From: Bacteroidota bacterium
GTDB taxonomy: Bacteria > Bacteroidota > Bacteroidia > Bacteroidales > NBLH01
Direction of reading: 5' to 3'
Length of the DNA stretch: 64,000 nucleotides
Assembly (NCBI GenBank): GCA_039714415.1
Contig: JBDLJL010000002.1
Location: 14,269 to 78,268 of the forward strand
Shown in pieces: positions 14,598 through 22,732 of the stretch. The stretch's first letter is position 1, and the number at the start of each line of letters is the position of its first letter. Under the pieces are notes generated by a model. The model ran no database searches, had not been told where the DNA came from, and worked only from the letters and a program-made list of their open reading frames with translations. Position numbers and translations under genes: made by a program.

Positions 14598-15440
14598 ATG
14601 CAAAAGAACAGTGGAAAATATTTATTCTTTCTTTTTGTTTTAATAAGCTCTTATTTTATAGCTTGTTCACCACAAAAAAGTTATAAGGTATTATCGTTTT
14701 TATTTGATGGTGTTCCGGAACCTTCGCCTGATAAGTTGGTTGAATTAAATGATACAGTTTATCAGACTGATAGTGTTGTAATTGCTTCAAATAGGATTTC
14801 GCAACCATTAATGTTTTACCATTCCCCTTATAAGAAAAAAGAATGTACTATTTGTCATGATCGAAATTCCATGGATAAAACGGTTGAACCCCAACCTAAA
14901 CTTTGCTATAAGTGTCATGACAACTATAATGATAAATTCGAGTTTATTCATGGCCCGGTAGGTGGTGGGTATTGTACTTCGTGTCATAATGCTCATAAAT
15001 CCAAATCTGATCATTTACTTTTAAGGTCTTCTCAACAGTTGTGCATACACTGTCATGATTCTATTTTGGTTTTTAAAAACAGGTATCATTTAAACAATGA
15101 TATATCAAATTGTATAGAATGCCATAACCCTCATGGTGGTGAAAACAGGTACATGCCTGAAAAAGGTTCCTGTTATAAATGTCATGAAAAATACAATGAA
15201 AAATTTAGCTATCTGCATGGCCCTGTGGCCGGTGAATATTGCACAACCTGTCATAGCCCGCATATGACTAAAACAAAAAAACTATTAATAATGCAAGGTT
15301 CTTCATTGTGTTTAAATTGCCATAACAAAGAATTGATTTTTGAAAGTGATCATCATAAAAATGTAGATAAGACTTGTATTGATTGTCATGATCCACATGG
15401 AGGTGAAGACAGGTTATTTATAAAAAATAAAACTCAATGA
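14598..15440 (+). CDS. Nonaheme c-type cytochrome lipoprotein (1 + 4 + 4 CXXCH, two c7/c3-like tetraheme units)
   Basis: The lipobox is IAC. Motifs are CTICH, CYKCH, CTSCH, CIHCH, CIECH, CYKCH, CTTCH, CLNCH and CIDCH. An internal duplicate is visible: CYKCH..YN.KF...HGPV.G.YCT.CH. Confidence 0.88.
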   Translation: MQKNSGKYLFFLFVLISSYFIACSPQKSYKVLSFLFDGVPEPSPDKLVELNDTVYQTDSVVIASNRISQPLMFYHSPYKKKECTICHDRNSMDKTVEPQPKLCYKCHDNYNDKFEFIHGPVGGGYCTSCHNAHKSKSDHLLLRSSQQLCIHCHDSILVFKNRYHLNNDISNCIECHNPHGGENRYMPEKGSCYKCHEKYNEKFSYLHGPVAGEYCTTCHSPHMTKTKKLLIMQGSSLCLNCHNKELIFESDHHKNVDKTCIDCHDPHGGEDRLFIKNKTQ

Positions 15441-15444
15441 ATAA

Positions 15445-17406
15445 TTGATGGGTAGGAAGCTTATATATATCATTTTATTTTTATTATTCTATGCAGATGG
15501 TATAGCTCAAAAGCCTATTGTTTCATTGGGGACATGGAAGCTAACTAAACTATATGGCGACTTTAATTTACACAGTTTTTATAGAGGAAATGAACGATCT
15601 TTTAATCAAAATTATGAATTTCATCAAAGTGGTTATTTTTCAGGGGGGCTGTGTTTAAAAACGAGAAGTTATTTTTGGGATCCTAATTTTATAACACTTG
15701 ACGTAAATGCTGAGTATAGTCCTGAAACAGGCAATGAATTTTACCTTAATATTCCTGATCGTTCAGAAGTAAGAACTCTAAAAAGACTGGATTTAAGAAC
15801 CTCAATATTCAAAAAGAATAGTCTTTCACTAAATGCTTTTGCTAATTTAAACCAAAGTATTAATAACCGGGAACTTTTAACCAGCCTAAAATCAGAAAAT
15901 AAAAGATGGGGCGGGATGTTATCATACAGGAACAAGGCACTTCCATTTACCCTTACATATAAAGAAAATTTGTGGGATCAGGAAGAAATTGCTTCAAGAA
16001 GAGTGTTCAAAATGAATCAGAAAAACTTTATGGCCAGAACTTCAAAATCCTTTTCTGATTATGATTCACACGAATTAAATTATGCTCATAATGTATATTC
16101 CCGGCAGGATGGTGATATGCAACCTATTGAAAACAATATTGATCAGATATTTTTGAAAAACAGGGTCTATTTTGATACTCAAAAGAAATATGTTTTCAGA
16201 TCGTTGATTACGGATTTTATTCAAAAAGGGAATAATGAATATAAAAGATTCCAGGTAAATGAACAATTGTTCTTAAAATTACCCCAAAAACTCTCATTAA
16301 CTGCTAATTATCAATATTACAATTTACAACAAACATCACAAAGTTTAAATCAAAACAGGCTTAAGGCCACCCTTGGCCATCAATTATTTTTAAGTTTAAA
16401 TACAAATGTGTATTATGAATATTTCAAACTTAGGCATTCCTTTTATGATGAGGCAAATACCCGGGCTGGAATAGACCTTACTTACTCAAAAAAAATACCT
16501 AAAGGTCATTTTACCCTTGCCTATAAATACTACAGGCATTACCAGGTCATGGATGCCCAAAATACTTTCATTAATGAAATAAATGAAGAACATGTTTTAT
16601 CAGATGGTCAAATTGTATTATTAAACAGACCTTATATTGATCCTGCAACAATTATTGTAAAAGATATTACCGGGACAATTATATTTCAACGTGATTTCGA
16701 CTATATTTTAATTGAAAGGAATAATTTTATTGAAATTCAACGTTTACCTGGTGGTCAAATTCCTAATAATGAAATTGTATACATTGATTATACCGCTGTT
16801 CAACCAGGCTCATATCAGTATGATGCCAATAATAATGCCTTATCAGCAAACATTATCTTATTTAACCGATTAATCGAACTGTATTTCCGGGCTTCAAAGC
16901 AAGAGTATTCAAGCTTAATAAACGTGGATCATATTACCTTAAATCGCTATACACAAACTTTAGTAGGTGGTAAAGTTGATGTTGGTTTTGCAATTGCCGG
17001 AATTGAATATGATAATTACAATAGCAATATTATTCCCTACCGTATGGTAAGATATTATATCAATCTTCAAAAAACTTTCTATAAAAGGCTTTTATGTTCT
17101 TTAAATGGGAATATTAGGGATTATGAAAAAACAACAGATAAAATACCACAACAATTTTCTGATATTTCGGGGAAAATCATTTATCGGTTTAAATTAAGAT
17201 CAAAAATCTCTTTGGAAGGAGCTTACCGAAAACAACAAGGTGATGGAATTGATTTGGATTTATTTACAGGAAGGAGTGAGTTTGAAACAAAATACCGGCA
17301 AATGATTTTTAAAGTTGGTATGAATATGTATCGTCGGAATAATATCGGTAATAAAACTGTTTTTAACAGTGTTTATGGTAAAATTATAAGAAAATTTAAA
17401 TTATAA
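15445..17406 (+). CDS. Putative outer-membrane beta-barrel (porin-like) protein of the cytochrome conduit
   Basis: It has a signal peptide (LFYADGIAQ), is 653 aa and is rich in Y/N/R/K. Alternating hydrophobic strands run to the C-terminus (IFKVGMNMYRR ... TVFNSVYGKIIRKFKL). It lies 4-8 nt from the flanking cytochrome genes. There is no recognisable enzymatic motif. Confidence 0.5.
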   Translation: MMGRKLIYIILFLLFYADGIAQKPIVSLGTWKLTKLYGDFNLHSFYRGNERSFNQNYEFHQSGYFSGGLCLKTRSYFWDPNFITLDVNAEYSPETGNEFYLNIPDRSEVRTLKRLDLRTSIFKKNSLSLNAFANLNQSINNRELLTSLKSENKRWGGMLSYRNKALPFTLTYKENLWDQEEIASRRVFKMNQKNFMARTSKSFSDYDSHELNYAHNVYSRQDGDMQPIENNIDQIFLKNRVYFDTQKKYVFRSLITDFIQKGNNEYKRFQVNEQLFLKLPQKLSLTANYQYYNLQQTSQSLNQNRLKATLGHQLFLSLNTNVYYEYFKLRHSFYDEANTRAGIDLTYSKKIPKGHFTLAYKYYRHYQVMDAQNTFINEINEEHVLSDGQIVLLNRPYIDPATIIVKDITGTIIFQRDFDYILIERNNFIEIQRLPGGQIPNNEIVYIDYTAVQPGSYQYDANNNALSANIILFNRLIELYFRASKQEYSSLINVDHITLNRYTQTLVGGKVDVGFAIAGIEYDNYNSNIIPYRMVRYYINLQKTFYKRLLCSLNGNIRDYEKTTDKIPQQFSDISGKIIYRFKLRSKISLEGAYRKQQGDGIDLDLFTGRSEFETKYRQMIFKVGMNMYRRNNIGNKTVFNSVYGKIIRKFKL

Positions 17407-17414
17407 CCATTATT

Positions 17415-19610
17415 ATGGAAGGATTTCTGTTTTCACTATTAATATGGGCTTCAAGTTTGAATCCTAATTTGGCAAATCAGGCCAATGTAAATGATATTTC
17501 CTTTTCTGAAACAAGCTATAATTATTTGGCTCAAAATACTTTAGTTGAAAATAATTGTATAGAATGTCATGAGGATGTTTTGGAATTAAAGAGAAAACAC
17601 AAAGCTGCTACAGAGGGCTGTGATAAATGCCATACGCCTAATGGAAAAGAACACCCGCTTGAGGGTGTTAAAGGCTTTTCCTTAAGCCAAAAGATTCCTG
17701 CACTGTGCTTATCTTGCCACGATAGCTTAAATTTCAAGAAAAACTTACATCAACCATCAAAAGATGGGAAATGTATTGATTGTCATTCACCACATAGCTC
17801 AAAATACAAGAACTTGTTAATTGAAAAAAAGAGTGCGAATTTGTGTAAAAAATGCCATGACCTGGAGATAAAGGAAAAGGATGTGGTACACAATCCTGTT
17901 AAAGGTGGTAGGTGTCATAAATGCCATGATCCTCATCAATCTGATTTTGATTCGTTTTTGAAAAACGACATGCCCGCTTTATGTTACCGGTGCCACGATG
18001 GCGTTGCCGAAGAAATGAAATTAAAAAGGCTGCATGCCCCTGCCAAAGAAGATTGCTTCAAATGCCATGATCCGCACAATTCTAAAGAAAGTTATTTGCT
18101 TAATGATACCATCCCTACATTGTGCTATTCATGCCATACAGATATAAAAACGAAAAAAAATATACACCAACCTGCCGGTGATGGAAAATGTAAGGACTGT
18201 CATGCCACCCATGGTTCCAAAAATAAGAAGTTGTTAAAACAAAAGAAGTCAGTAAATCTGTGTAAGGAATGCCACCAACTGGAAATAAAGGAAAAGGATG
18301 TGGTACATAATCCCGTTAAAGGTGGTAGGTGCCATAAATGCCATAATCCGCACCAATCCGATTTTGATTCGTTTTTGAAAAACGATATGCCATCTTTATG
18401 TTACAGGTGCCATGATGGTGTTGCCGAAGAAATGAAATTAAAAAGGGTGCATACAGCAGCCAAAGAAAATTGTTTAGGCTGCCACAATCCGCATAATGCT
18501 AAAGAGAGTTATTTACTTCCTGACACTATTCCAAACTTATGTTATTCTTGTCACCAGGATAAGAAAACGAAAAAAAACATTCATAAATCTTCTGTTGACG
18601 GAAAATGTAGTAGTTGTCATGTTACCCATGGTTCAAAAAACAAAAATTTGCTAAGAGAGAAGAAATCAGTAAATTTATGTAAGGAATGTCATCAACTGGA
18701 TATTCCTAAAGGAAATGTGGTACATAATCCTGTTAAAGGTGGCAGGTGCCATAAATGTCATGATTCGCATCAATCTGATTTTGATTCGTTTTTGAAAAAC
18801 GATATGCCCGCTTTATGTTTCCGTTGCCATGATGGTGTCGCAGATGCTTTAAAAACTGATAACGTTCATAAACCAGCAAAGGAAGACTGCTTTAAATGTC
18901 ACGATGCGCATAATAATAAAGAAAGTTATTTACTTCCTGATTCTGTACCAAGTTTATGCTATAGTTGTCATAAAGATTTTCAAAAAAGTATAGAAGGTAC
19001 AGCATTAGTGCATCAGGCAGTAAAAAATCAGAAATCATGTTCAAATTGTCATTCACCACATGGTTCTGCTGAGAATAATTTTTTGAAGGCAAAAGAAAAA
19101 GAGCTATGTTTAAATTGTCATAATAAAACATACAAAACAGAATCCGGAATCATTGTAAATGTTAAAAAGCAAATAGAAAACGGTAAATCTGTACATGGAC
19201 CCGTTAATAACGGATGTGTAGTTTGTCACGACCCGCATTCTTCAAAAAACCCTAACTTAATGGTCGCAAACTTTCCGGTTGGTTCATATGCTGTAGCAAA
19301 CAAAGAAAATTTTGCATTATGTTTTAATTGCCATGATATTGAGATTCTTAAAAATGAACGAAGTAAAACAGTTACCAATTTTAGGGATGGTGATTTGAAC
19401 CTTCATTTTTTACATACCAATGGCAACCGGGGAAGAAACTGTACGACATGTCATAATATGCACGCCTCTAAAAATGAGCATTTAATAGAGGATAAAGTTA
19501 TGTATGGTAATTGGAAAATGCCCATGAAATTTATAAAATTAGAAAATGGAGGATCTTGTTTTCCGGGATGTCATTCAGAAGAAAAATATGACAGAACAAG
19601 AATATGGTAA
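17415..19610 (+). CDS. Giant multiheme c-type cytochrome, 26 CXXCH plus 1 C-terminal CX3CH
   Basis: The 26 CXXCH motifs were counted in the 731-aa translation, plus CFPGCH at aa 715-720. The sequence contains almost nothing but heme-binding units. Confidence 0.9.
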   Translation: MEGFLFSLLIWASSLNPNLANQANVNDISFSETSYNYLAQNTLVENNCIECHEDVLELKRKHKAATEGCDKCHTPNGKEHPLEGVKGFSLSQKIPALCLSCHDSLNFKKNLHQPSKDGKCIDCHSPHSSKYKNLLIEKKSANLCKKCHDLEIKEKDVVHNPVKGGRCHKCHDPHQSDFDSFLKNDMPALCYRCHDGVAEEMKLKRLHAPAKEDCFKCHDPHNSKESYLLNDTIPTLCYSCHTDIKTKKNIHQPAGDGKCKDCHATHGSKNKKLLKQKKSVNLCKECHQLEIKEKDVVHNPVKGGRCHKCHNPHQSDFDSFLKNDMPSLCYRCHDGVAEEMKLKRVHTAAKENCLGCHNPHNAKESYLLPDTIPNLCYSCHQDKKTKKNIHKSSVDGKCSSCHVTHGSKNKNLLREKKSVNLCKECHQLDIPKGNVVHNPVKGGRCHKCHDSHQSDFDSFLKNDMPALCFRCHDGVADALKTDNVHKPAKEDCFKCHDAHNNKESYLLPDSVPSLCYSCHKDFQKSIEGTALVHQAVKNQKSCSNCHSPHGSAENNFLKAKEKELCLNCHNKTYKTESGIIVNVKKQIENGKSVHGPVNNGCVVCHDPHSSKNPNLMVANFPVGSYAVANKENFALCFNCHDIEILKNERSKTVTNFRDGDLNLHFLHTNGNRGRNCTTCHNMHASKNEHLIEDKVMYGNWKMPMKFIKLENGGSCFPGCHSEEKYDRTRIW
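17697..18947 (+). repeat. Three tandem in-frame 417-bp (139-aa, hexaheme) repeat units inside the 27-heme gene
   Basis: CTGGA(G/A)ATAAAGGAAAAGGATGTGGTACA recurs at 17862 and 18279, and its diverged counterpart CTGGATATTCCTAAAGGAAATGTGGTACA lies at 18696 (period 417). Long stretches are near-identical at nucleotide level. Confidence 0.85.
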
Positions 19611-22600
19611 AATATTTAAATGGAATATATATGAAACGTGTTTATAATGTGTTGATTTCTATGCAGACAATGGCTGCATTGCTTATTTTGTATATAATTG
19701 CAATGGCGGTAGCCACCTTTATTGAAAATGATTATGGTGCCCCTGTTTCAAAACACTTTGTTTATAATGCCTGGTGGTTTGAACTTATCCAGTTTCTACT
19801 GGTTGTTAATATGGTTGGAAATGTTTTTAAATATAAGTTGTATAAAAAACAAAAGTTAAGTATCCTTTTATTTCACATTGCTTTTATTATTATTCTCATT
19901 GGTGCAGGTGTAACCCGTTATATAAGTTTTGAAGGGACAATGCATATTCGTGAAGGAGAATCAAGCAACAAGATTCTTTCAGGAACATTATTGCAAATGC
20001 ATCTGTCCTCCGGTGATTTGCAGGAAAATTATAATACAGAATTGTTTATAAGTCCCGCTGTAAATACAGAGTTTTATCATGAGTTTGAGATAAATGGGAA
20101 AAAAGTTGAAGTAGAATTGAAAAATATAATCCCGAACCCAAAAGAAACTGTGGTTGAAGTTATAGATGGAAAAGCAATAATTGATATGGTATTTGCTTCA
20201 AAACAGAATATGGACAACCATTTTCTAAAAGAAAAAGCAATATTAAGTCATGGTGGGTTAAGCTTTACATTAAATGATGAAAGCAATGGTCAATCAGTAA
20301 AATTTTATACAGAGAATAAAAAGCTTTACCTGTTATCATCTTATAATTTAAGCGTGTTGGCAATGACAGGTAGTGAACTTGATACTGTTCTAATAGCAGG
20401 CGAAAAACACGAAATTCAGCTAAAGCAGTTGTATTCAATACAAAATCAGAAATTTGTTGTTACTAATTTTTATGAAAAAGCAAGAATTTCTTATGTGCCT
20501 GGCGATATGAGAAATGGTATGCAATTTTTTGCTTTGGAATTTGATATAAAAAGCGGTGTTTCAACAAAAAAAGCTGAAATAATTAGTGCTTATGGTGCGG
20601 TAGGCTACCCTGCATCAATACAAATTAATGAAATAAATGTTGACCTTGCTTACGGTGCACAGGAAATGATTTTACCTTTTGAATTGAAATTAAGAGATTT
20701 TCAACTTGAAAGATATCCGGGTTCTGAAAGTCCGTCTTCTTATGCAAGTGAAGTAACTTTATTAGATGAAAAGAATAGTATTGATATGGATTATCGCATT
20801 TTTATGAATAATGTGCTTGATTATAAAGGCTATCGTTTTTTTCAATCATCTTATGACCGTGATGAGAAGGGAACCATTTTATCAGTAAGTAAAGATAAAA
20901 CAGGAACAATGATTACCTACCTGGGATACTTTCTTCTATCACTTGGTATGCTTTGGTCATTATTAAATAAAAACAGTTATTTTATTGAACTTCTAAAAAG
21001 AACCGGGGACATTAGGGATAAGAGAAAAGGGATTGCGACCGTTATTTTGATTTTATTATTATTTGGTACTCAAAATTCTTTTGCCCAGAACACCCGACAG
21101 CATATAGATGCTGCCCATGCTAAAGAATTTGGAAAACTATTTGTTCAGGATAATGGTGGCCGTATCAAACCTTTTAACACGCTGACTAATGAACTTTTAA
21201 GAAAAATTTCAAGAAAAGAAGAGCTGCTGGGGTTAAACTCAAATCAAGTTTATTTGGGTATGATATTTAACCCGGTGTTCTGGAAAGATGTTAAAATGAT
21301 AAAAATCAAAAACCAGGAGTTAAAAGATTTGTTGGGTGTAGTGGGCTCATATGTGTCATTTAATGATCTGGTTAACCTGGAAAAAAATGAATACAAGTTA
21401 AAATCATATGTTGAGATGGCTTTTAATAAGGAGCTATCCCAAAGGAGTAAGTTTGACAAAGATGTAATTACAGTAGATGAACGTTTAAATATTTCTTATC
21501 AGGTTCTTTCTGGTGCATACCTCAAAGTTTTTCCTATACCCGATGAAATAAATCACAAATGGTTAAACCCTTCTGGAAATAAACATATTAAAGATAGTGT
21601 TGACAGGCAGTTTGTGGCCGGTGTGTTTTCAGCATATTTTAATGCGGTTGTGGCATCTGAAAAATCTGGTGATTGGGCTAAGCCAAATGAAATTCTAAAA
21701 AGTATTAAAGATTTTCAGATGAAATATGGTTCAGAAATTATTCCATCAGAAACTAAACTTAAGTTAGAGGTTCATTACATTAATGCTGATATTTTTAATA
21801 GAATTTACATGTACTATGGAATCATTGGGTTCGTTTTTTTAATTGTTTTATTTGTGGGCATTTTAAAGCCAAAAATGAATATAAAAATATTCACAACCCT
21901 TGCCAGTATTTTGTTGGGGGTTCTCTTTTTGTTCCATACTTATGGTTTAGGTTTACGATGGTACATTTCTGATCATGCCCCCTGGAGCAATGGATATGAA
22001 TCTATGATTTATATTGCCTGGGCTACAATGCTTGCCGGCTTTTTGTTCATGAAACGTTCACCAATAACGCTGGCGGCTACCTCATTATTGGCATCTATCA
22101 CCTTGATGGTGGCCCATTTAAGTTGGATGAACCCTGAAATAACCAACTTAGTACCTGTATTAAAGTCGTACTGGTTAACTATTCATGTATCCGTTATAAC
22201 AGCAAGTTATGGATTTTTGGCCTTGGCTGCATTGCTTGGGTTTTTAAGCCTAATTCTAATTATTTTACAAACTAATAAAAATAAGGAACAAATAAACCTG
22301 ACCATTGAGGAAATAACAAATGTTAACCATATGGCAATTATTGTGGGATTGTATTTGTTAACTATTGGTGCATTTTTAGGTGGGGTGTGGGCTAATGAAT
22401 CCTGGGGCAGGTATTGGGGCTGGGACCCTAAAGAAACATGGGCTTTAATAACAATAATTGTTTATTCTTTCGTAACCCATACTCGCTTAATACCATTTTT
22501 GAACAATAGGTATACTTATAACCTACTCTCTTTATTAAGTTTTTCTTCAGTTTTAATGACCTATTTTGGTGTTAACTATTACTTGTCCGGATTGCATTCT

Positions 22601-22732
22601 TATGCCTCTGGCGATCCTGTTCCTGTTCCAGCTTATGTTTATTATATCTTAGCTATAATTTTTATAATTTCAATAGTAGCATTTTTTAAAAATTCAAAGA
22701 CTAAAGAAGAAAAGGTTTCCATATCAGTATAA
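19604..22732 (+). CDS. ccsBA: Fused System II cytochrome c synthetase CcsBA (ResB-like N-terminus plus CcsA C-terminus); alternative start at 19631
   Basis: The ResB-type N-terminus is SMQTMAALLILYIIAMAVATFIEN. The C-terminal WWD motif is WGRYWGWDPKETWAL, with multiple TM segments. ATG 19604 overlaps the stop of the 27-heme gene (ATGGTAA). Confidence 0.85.
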   Translation: MVKYLNGIYMKRVYNVLISMQTMAALLILYIIAMAVATFIENDYGAPVSKHFVYNAWWFELIQFLLVVNMVGNVFKYKLYKKQKLSILLFHIAFIIILIGAGVTRYISFEGTMHIREGESSNKILSGTLLQMHLSSGDLQENYNTELFISPAVNTEFYHEFEINGKKVEVELKNIIPNPKETVVEVIDGKAIIDMVFASKQNMDNHFLKEKAILSHGGLSFTLNDESNGQSVKFYTENKKLYLLSSYNLSVLAMTGSELDTVLIAGEKHEIQLKQLYSIQNQKFVVTNFYEKARISYVPGDMRNGMQFFALEFDIKSGVSTKKAEIISAYGAVGYPASIQINEINVDLAYGAQEMILPFELKLRDFQLERYPGSESPSSYASEVTLLDEKNSIDMDYRIFMNNVLDYKGYRFFQSSYDRDEKGTILSVSKDKTGTMITYLGYFLLSLGMLWSLLNKNSYFIELLKRTGDIRDKRKGIATVILILLLFGTQNSFAQNTRQHIDAAHAKEFGKLFVQDNGGRIKPFNTLTNELLRKISRKEELLGLNSNQVYLGMIFNPVFWKDVKMIKIKNQELKDLLGVVGSYVSFNDLVNLEKNEYKLKSYVEMAFNKELSQRSKFDKDVITVDERLNISYQVLSGAYLKVFPIPDEINHKWLNPSGNKHIKDSVDRQFVAGVFSAYFNAVVASEKSGDWAKPNEILKSIKDFQMKYGSEIIPSETKLKLEVHYINADIFNRIYMYYGIIGFVFLIVLFVGILKPKMNIKIFTTLASILLGVLFLFHTYGLGLRWYISDHAPWSNGYESMIYIAWATMLAGFLFMKRSPITLAATSLLASITLMVAHLSWMNPEITNLVPVLKSYWLTIHVSVITASYGFLALAALLGFLSLILIILQTNKNKEQINLTIEEITNVNHMAIIVGLYLLTIGAFLGGVWANESWGRYWGWDPKETWALITIIVYSFVTHTRLIPFLNNRYTYNLLSLLSFSSVLMTYFGVNYYLSGLHSYASGDPVPVPAYVYYILAIIFIISIVAFFKNSKTKEEKVSISV

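Follow-up and report, generated by a model that had tools for sequence, protein, structure and literature searches.

Module duplication is an established idea for multiheme cytochromes, as laid out in the passages of PMC11492766 that discuss the Geobacter dodecaheme "nanowire" GSU1996. In one survey, heme gains in such proteins looked like step changes that the authors could tie to no known transposable or insertion element, and fusion of heme-binding peptide segments was inferred (10.1101/2025.05.29.656830). Here we analyze a multiheme cytochrome c gene (positions 17415 to 19610, forward strand) in a 64,000-nucleotide stretch of DNA from an uncultured Bacteroidales genus (assembly GCA_039714415.1, contig JBDLJL010000002.1, positions 14,269 to 78,268), hereafter called the window. 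The gene contains three tandem copies of a 417-nt unit, each encoding six heme-binding motifs. We conclude, with a probability of roughly 0.8 for the explanation as a whole, that it encodes an old three-unit, MtrA-like wire that arose by tandem duplication, whose unit core is kept alike by gene conversion, and which probably lies in the periplasm inserted into an outer-membrane barrel.

The closest described protein is MtrA of the Shewanella MtrCAB complex (6R2Q chain A), which belongs with DmsE, MtoA, and PioA (TIGR03508). Like MtrA, the window protein is predicted to carry bis-His c-hemes in a chain along paired CXXCH modules, at about 23 to 33 residues per heme, and its gene adjoins that of a large outer-membrane barrel. 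It differs in having 27 heme sites rather than 10, a threefold hexaheme higher-order repeat, and a terminal CX3CH. Unlike MtrCAB, the window has the gene order lipoprotein cytochrome, barrel, wire; its barrel lacks sequence similarity to MtrB; and the host, unlike Shewanella, is a member of the Bacteroidota with a CcsBA (system II) maturase.

In Ignavibacterium album, the porin-cytochrome (Pcc) pair IALB_1839/IALB_1838 joins a porin-like gene to a periplasmic cytochrome of ∼400 amino acids and 14 heme motifs, the largest Pcc periplasmic cytochrome then known, and the extra hemes were proposed to extend its reach (Shi et al. 2014, PMC4245776). This arrangement matches the one-unit members of the family described below, which also occur in Ignavibacteria metagenome-assembled genomes (MAGs); likened by size and heme count, the I. 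album cytochrome is probably the one-unit form. The window protein (26 + 1 sites, 731 amino acids) exceeds IALB_1838 by two hexaheme units. The PCC3 systems of Fe(II) oxidizers (He et al. 2017, PMC5566968) also combine a porin with heme-dense cytochromes carrying heme-bearing internal repeats, for which an envelope-spanning wire was proposed; the PCC3 periplasmic cytochrome has a median of 21 hemes, with 22 to 39 amino acids per heme. This likeness is one of described features; PCC3 is found mostly in Proteobacteria with another companion inner-membrane protein, and that paper gives neither a unit-number series nor recombination footprints. GSU1996 resembles the window protein as a soluble wire proposed to have evolved when a small multiheme module was duplicated and the copies were concatenated. 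Its modules, however, are triheme and of the c7 type, it has no barrel linkage, and the window protein gave no PDB sequence or fold match to it at the thresholds used. The literature searched contained no description of a three-unit Bacteroidales protein or of an 8 + 6n heme series, an absence that is not proof; three things appear to be new here, namely the Bacteroidales form with three units, the 8 + 6n series, and the recombination footprints at the DNA level.

Architecture of the cytochrome and its hexaheme units

The open reading frame (ORF) encodes 731 amino acids with 26 CXXCH motifs and one CX3CH motif (CFPGCH), which bears out the count of 27 heme sites given in a first-pass annotation of this DNA. 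Thirteen diheme "paired CXXCH" modules of ∼46 residues each follow the pattern P-x-L-C-x-x-C-H ... H ... C-x-x-C-H-x-P-H. Module types a, b, and c combine into one 139-amino-acid hexaheme unit, a higher-order repeat. In order, the protein consists of one N-terminal diheme module, three such units, a degenerate fourth hexaheme block, and the terminal CX3CH. As that annotation had also described, the three 417-nt units are consecutive and in frame, starting at 17697, 18114, and 18531, each with six CXXCH in the same motif order (LCYSCH, GKCxDCH, LCKECH, RCHKCH, LCYRCH, CFKCH). Unit 1 (17697 to 18113, amino acids 95 to 233, modules a, b, and c), unit 2 (18114 to 18530, amino acids 234 to 372), and unit 3 (18531 to 18947, amino acids 373 to 511), all on the forward strand, matched a profile of the unit at 280, 284, and 277 bits, respectively. 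Tandem Repeats Finder returned a single array (17838 to 18935, period 417, 2.6 copies, 80% matches, score 1348), and the repeat finder counted three copies, each 417 nt from the next.

Heme motifs within the array are spaced 22 to 24 residues apart throughout. In the fourth block (18948 to 19499, forward strand, amino acids 512 to 695), which contains insertions and gave a weak full-length match to the unit profile (34.9 bits), the spacing broadens to 27 to 40 residues; this block is part of the invariant C-terminal region of the family. The 27th heme site, CFPGCH (amino acids 715 to 720; 19557 to 19574, forward strand), is recognized by motif and by conservation, with C715, G718, C719, and H720 invariant or nearly so among 24 to 80 homologs. 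The antisense strand of the repeat region has no ORF of ≥80 amino acids. The genome holds this array once only, with neither a second copy nor a stray piece of it.

The sequence and the predicted fold both point to MtrA. Pfam PF09699 (paired CXXCH; TIGR01905) matched 13 stretches of the protein (E = 1e-135), in agreement with a repeated diheme module of ∼41 residues, and Pfam Cytochrome_C7 matched 2 stretches only, which does not fit a c7 wire of the GSU1996 type. The score against the NCBIfam DmsE family TIGR03508 (288.6 bits versus a cutoff of 192.2) is a sum over seven partial stretches and not an end-to-end match. Members of that family have ten heme sites in ∼300 to 350 residues, unlike the 26 CXXCH and one CX3CH in 731 residues found here. 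Among PDB sequences, only 6r2q_A matched (E = 1.7e-15). This chain is mislabeled in the PDB sequence file; the Foldseek library names 6r2q as the Mtr complex, and a preprint identifies 6R2Q_A as MtrA (10.1101/2025.05.29.656830). A heme-free AlphaFold2 (AF2) model of the cytochrome, built with 80 homologs, had a mean predicted local distance difference test score (pLDDT) of 85.6. In a Foldseek search with this model, MtrA (6r2q_A) was the sole PDB match with E ≤ 0.001 (E = 2e-7, 261 of 265 residues, target template modeling [TM] score of 0.56).

The three-unit state is old

Below, P-numbers denote homologous proteins, G-numbers genomes of the same genus, and L-numbers related loci; the window gene was labeled WIN in the comparisons. 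The first-pass annotation regarded the units as near-identical and the triplication as recent, and neither description withstood alignment. Over whole units, DNA identity is 78% between units 1 and 2, 71% between units 1 and 3, and 76% between units 2 and 3 (protein identity, 77, 71, and 73%), with longest exact in-register runs of 27, 35, and 32 nt, respectively. The segments cited as examples of near-identity (17862 to 18000 and its two counterparts) are 91, 86, and 84% identical in the same order of pairs. By the Nei-Gojobori method (NG86), synonymous divergence (dS) between whole units is 1.2 to 2.4 and nonsynonymous divergence (dN) is 0.15 to 0.23. All units are maintained by purifying selection (dN/dS ∼0.1). 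With this level of identity, exact runs of at most 35 nt, and dS above 1, the array does not resemble a young tandem repeat or a variable locus of the contingency type.

Trees and orthologs place the triplication well before the present strain. Grouping the three units of the window gene as one clade was rejected by the approximately unbiased (AU) test (p = 0.0006), and with it a triplication specific to the window. A clade of all last units, as expected from a single ancient triplication with static units, was rejected at the same level (p = 0.0006), and in the G004/G010/P0004 branch the units cluster by lineage. Outside the central core described below, each unit of the window gene is 80, 83, or 75% identical in DNA to the unit at the same position (first, second, or third) of the ortholog P0001, versus 64 to 72% between units within the window. 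This positional orthology indicates that the triplication is older than the split between the window gene and P0001. The nearest relative of unit 2 is unit 2 of P0001 (89% amino-acid identity), and in unit trees, unit 3 falls with unit 3 of P0001, of G001, and of P0005. Three-unit orthologs with 60 to 80% protein identity (P0001, G001, G004, G010 [the same as P0003], P0004, and P0005) come from independent assemblies and represent at least five other lineages of the same genus; they are spread across the clade in a tree of the non-repeat flanks. Read from these sequence comparisons, the three-unit state predates the split from the closest known ortholog (80% amino-acid identity), and it probably goes back to the ancestor of those lineages of this uncultured Bacteroidales genus that carry the cytochrome.

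A probably homogenized core within each unit

Similarity between the units is concentrated in one part. In a sliding comparison, a central core (unit nucleotides ∼157 to 300, 144 nt) was 84 to 98% identical, versus 50 to 75% in the flanking parts. On the forward strand, the core lies at 17853 to 17996 in unit 1, where it spans module b and the start of module c, at 18270 to 18413 in unit 2, and at 18687 to 18830 in unit 3. Between cores, dS is 0.64 to 0.72 and dN is 0.03 to 0.11. Core DNA is more alike among the units of the window (85.4%) than between same-position units of the window and G001 (72.2%, p = 3e-6). The same is true of codon choice: where core codons specify one and the same amino acid, they agree in 75% of cases within the window versus 54% for same-position G001 units (p = 0.001). 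Non-core DNA showed no such difference (69.4% versus 71.7%, p = 0.33). Every genome has its own core variant, common to its three units, and P0001 has mosaic tracts common to neighboring units. Gene conversion that acts on the central diheme module alone, homogenizing the units within each genome, is the best explanation of this pattern and would be why the core looks near-identical.

Unit number varies across the family

Homologs fall into size classes that differ by whole units. Those of ∼430 to 460 amino acids have 13 or 14 CXXCH and one strong match to the unit profile, those of ∼576 to 589 have 19 or 20 CXXCH and two matches, and those of 728 to 731 have 26 CXXCH and three. An OmpA-domain fusion of 1102 amino acids (P0007) has 30 CXXCH, with three full units and one partial unit (four profile matches). 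Among species-representative loci with a barrel-linked cytochrome, 0, 1, 2, and 3 units occur in 2, 24, 4, and 1 loci, corresponding to 8 + 6n CXXCH. One unit is the family norm; outside the genus of the window, three units are seen only in P0008, an unrelated case. When 79 units were placed in a tree, those of P0008, of P0007, of the P0011-type group, and of P0067/71 each clustered by lineage; duplication thus happened several times independently. Together with the classes of 8, 13/14, 19/20, and 26 CXXCH, these comparisons sustain the earlier proposal that a six-heme cassette, duplicated in tandem and in frame, lengthened the heme chain.

The shortest members, in Lentimicrobiaceae MAGs (L067:10344-11270 and L072:10347-11276), are barrel linked, with 308 amino acids, 8 CXXCH, and no hexaheme unit. 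A class of ∼1065 amino acids and 42 CXXCH occurs in Zixibacteria, Eisenbacteria, Latescibacterota, Anaeromyxobacter, and others (P0014, P0022, P0079, and ∼35 more; L059, L076, and L084); it has repeated but weak unit-profile matches and no barrel homolog nearby. The G001 ortholog (L002, G001:C101:27444-29615) has 25 CXXCH and seems to have lost one heme site in unit 3, where the third motif reads LCKEYH (Cys to Tyr). Six of the 11 other same-genus genomes searched (G002, G006 to G009, and G011) had no homolog of the cytochrome; G007 is 59% complete. The gene is variably present within the genus, and the same is probably true of the whole island.

Copy-number change and assembly risk

Two close relatives differ by exactly one unit. 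P0002 (589 amino acids, two units; GCA_054034715.1) and P0004 (731 amino acids, three units; GCA_027036175.1) come from different assemblies, and their flanking DNA is ∼96 to 98% identical. Units 2 and 3 of P0004 differ at 66 sites. The second unit of P0002 equals unit 2 at the first 12 of 12 sites and then unit 3 at 49 of the 52 following assignable sites (Fisher p = 1e-10), and the switch in this hybrid unit falls inside an 83-nt exact repeat. The difference reflects either unequal crossing-over or assembler collapse.

The first-pass annotation had suggested that copy number could vary between strains and that the array posed an assembly risk. The first suggestion may apply to P0002 and P0004, but the exact repeats of the window gene are a poor substrate for such change. 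Likewise, the risk is real in relatives, since the G003 and G005 orthologs are split across contigs inside the array, but low in the window. An artifact there is very unlikely, judging from its sequence, because the copies differ at 22 to 29% of bases and so are not misrepeats of one sequence, and because exact repeats do not exceed 35 nt. For this family, heme counts from short-read MAGs need care where units are still similar.

The cytochrome gene is paired with an outer-membrane barrel gene

The gene for a 653-amino-acid outer-membrane beta-barrel (15445 to 17406, forward strand) ends 8 nt 5′ of the cytochrome gene. The barrel protein had no Pfam or NCBIfam match, and a 29-sequence profile of it returned only chance matches among PDB sequences (E ≥ 0.59). 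Its AF2 model is all-beta, with ∼30 strands and a pLDDT of 87.3. In Foldseek, it matched large outer-membrane barrels, with MtrB (6r2q_B) at rank 2 and a best TM score of 0.45/0.46; generic large barrels score alike. A ∼60-residue non-barrel insertion at 16600 to 16780 (amino acids ∼385 to 445), modeled with lower confidence, breaks the regular strand pattern.

In 31 species-representative loci, drawn from Bacteroidota, Ignavibacteriota/Chlorobiota, and Calditrichota, the cytochrome has a barrel homolog directly 5′ of it; the gap is 0 to 54 nt in 25 of the 31 listed loci and ≤350 nt in two more. Upstream of the barrel, a lipoprotein-type cytochrome gene recognized by its ORF and by Pfam and NCBIfam matches (14598 to 15440, forward strand; 280 amino acids, nine CXXCH, signal ...FIAC) is matched in related loci by a 9-heme or 5-heme counterpart in the same place. 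The resulting Pcc-type order of lipoprotein cytochrome, barrel, and wire, with gaps of 4 and 8 nt in the window, is conserved in Bacteroidota, Ignavibacteriota, and Calditrichota. Immediately downstream, the start of the gene encoding CcsBA, a cytochrome c synthase in which ResB and CcsA are fused (19604 to 22732, forward strand; Pfam PF05140 and PF01578, TIGR03144) overlaps the stop of the cytochrome gene, and CcsBA is also found downstream in several related loci. Some relatives (P0007, P0009, P0053, and P0062) carry a fused peptidoglycan-binding domain of the OmpA type.

A porin-cytochrome pairing is supported both by the barrel model and by the adjacency seen across loci. Two observations argue for a periplasmic location: the OmpA-type fusions in relatives and an OmpA-domain paralog 3′ of the gene in sister genomes. 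By analogy with MtrA, the protein most likely acts as an elongated porin-cytochrome wire in a single polypeptide.

Proposed mechanism and alternative explanations

We propose that a base form with 8 CXXCH (no unit) or 13/14 (one unit) would have given rise to forms with 20 and 26 CXXCH by tandem duplication of the unit. The array may still be able to lose or gain units by unequal crossing-over at long identical tracts, as in the sister lineage. Once exported, the cytochrome would receive its hemes from the CcsBA whose gene lies immediately downstream. One end would then insert into the barrel encoded upstream, like MtrA in MtrB, with the remainder reaching into the periplasm. The 10-heme MtrA, in the work cited by PMC4245776, is a ∼104-Å rod in small-angle X-ray scattering; linear scaling from it gives ∼5 to 6 nm per unit and ∼22 to 28 nm for 27 hemes. 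The Shewanella periplasm averages 23.5 nm in width (PMC12114092). By arithmetic only, the three-unit form could cross the periplasm, since its scaled length is comparable to the width of a Gram-negative periplasm. Tentatively, and with more doubt than confidence, we extend this to the idea that the count of hexaheme units (n = 0 to 3, for 8 + 6n heme sites) acts as a molecular ruler setting the periplasmic reach of a barrel-anchored polypeptide. Three units would then bridge an inner-membrane quinol dehydrogenase to the outer-membrane barrel without soluble shuttle cytochromes; unequal crossing-over would reset the ruler in evolution, and gene conversion would keep it uniform.

Other histories of the array can be set against this account. 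The central 139 to 144 nt is 84 to 91% identical between units, and two near-identical relatives differ in unit number, as expected if the triplication occurred recently in this strain, its units are still near-identical, and copy number now varies between strains by slippage or recombination. Such a history is highly improbable given whole-unit identities of 71 to 78%, dS of 1.2 to 2.4, the AU rejection of a window-specific clade of units, positional orthology with P0001 outside the core, and exact repeats (≤35 nt) too short to serve as more than a poor substrate for homologous recombination. It is less probable still that the array is an over-expanded or misjoined assembly repeat, a chance we regard as almost negligible: the genome is a 470-contig assembly, and contig breaks fall within the array of this gene in two relatives, but the units keep the frame and all 18 heme sites despite differing at 22 to 29% of bases, independent assemblies show the three-unit structure at 60 to 80% identity, and this genome has no orphan contig bearing further copies. 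For the core itself, similarity could arise with no conversion if the central diheme module were under strong purifying selection, for example as a repeated contact surface. Core dN is the lowest (0.03 to 0.11), and units 1 and 2 of G004/G010 encode near-identical protein (dN 0.009) despite dS of 0.32 to 0.78, so selection alone is able to hold units together. Protein-level selection nevertheless leaves unexplained the higher synonymous agreement within a genome (75% versus 54%) and the genome-specific core variant common to all units, and we consider this alternative to conversion quite unlikely.

As to function, the cytochrome might instead be extracellular or filament forming rather than a barrel-inserted periplasmic wire, with unit number tuning something besides periplasmic reach. 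Proteins with type IX secretion system (T9SS) tails are encoded in related loci, and the periplasmic location is itself inferred. This reading seems unlikely: MtrA is the sole structural relative, the barrel gene lies within the short distances given above in 27 of the 31 listed loci, paralogs carry a periplasmic OmpA-type domain, and the cytochrome sequence has neither a lipoprotein cysteine nor a Por secretion tail.

Several points weigh against the explanation that we favor, an old, conversion-homogenized, barrel-inserted wire. The core tests assume independent sites and pairs and draw on only 48 codons, and the unit tree, built on only 139 columns, contains many weak forks. The depth of the triplication beyond the split between the window gene and P0001 is uncertain, because a triplication specific to these two genes (all their units in one clade) gave a borderline AU result (p = 0.0485). 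Assembler collapse through the 83-nt repeat, and not biology, could explain why P0002 is one unit shorter than P0004, and the unit count of the window gene is deduced from sequence divergence and independent orthologous assemblies. Wire length, location, and partners are inferred, the length by scaling of published MtrA values, and the model is heme-free. Finally, the n-region of the N-terminal signal is acidic rather than basic.

If the favored explanation holds, the family offers a concrete DNA-level mechanism, comprising heme counts that step from 8 to 14, 20, and 26, tandem duplications that arose independently in several lineages, a hybrid unit whose crossover lies in an exact repeat, and conversion confined to one diheme module. 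It also points to naturally occurring MtrA-like wires, graded in length, across Bacteroidota and related phyla, which could be used to test whether a single polypeptide spans the periplasm.

Additional features of the locus

In sister genomes, the three- or two-unit cytochrome gene is followed by a gene for a paralog of ∼435 to 450 amino acids with 8 CXXCH, no unit, and a fused OmpA-type domain (L093:8265-9584, L094:7790-9139, and L095:3616-4920; also in G001, G003, and G004). This paralog corresponds to the N- and C-terminal parts only; it is absent from the window, where CcsBA follows directly. Farther along, L093:9901-14187 and L094:9170-13668 encode an NHL/PKD protein with a Por (T9SS) secretion tail, followed by a very large cytochrome (at least 1949 amino acids with a beta-helix domain in L093 and 783 amino acids in L094); the corresponding position of the window is without these genes.

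The N terminus of the cytochrome (17415 to 17480; MEGFLFSLLIWASSLNPNLANQ...) consists of a short hydrophobic stretch preceded by an acidic n-region with no basic residue, which is unusual for periplasmic export. The N-terminal sequence ME(E/V/G)FL is conserved among orthologs, and the AF2 model places residues 2 to 14 in a helix and residues 19 to 45 in a disordered segment.

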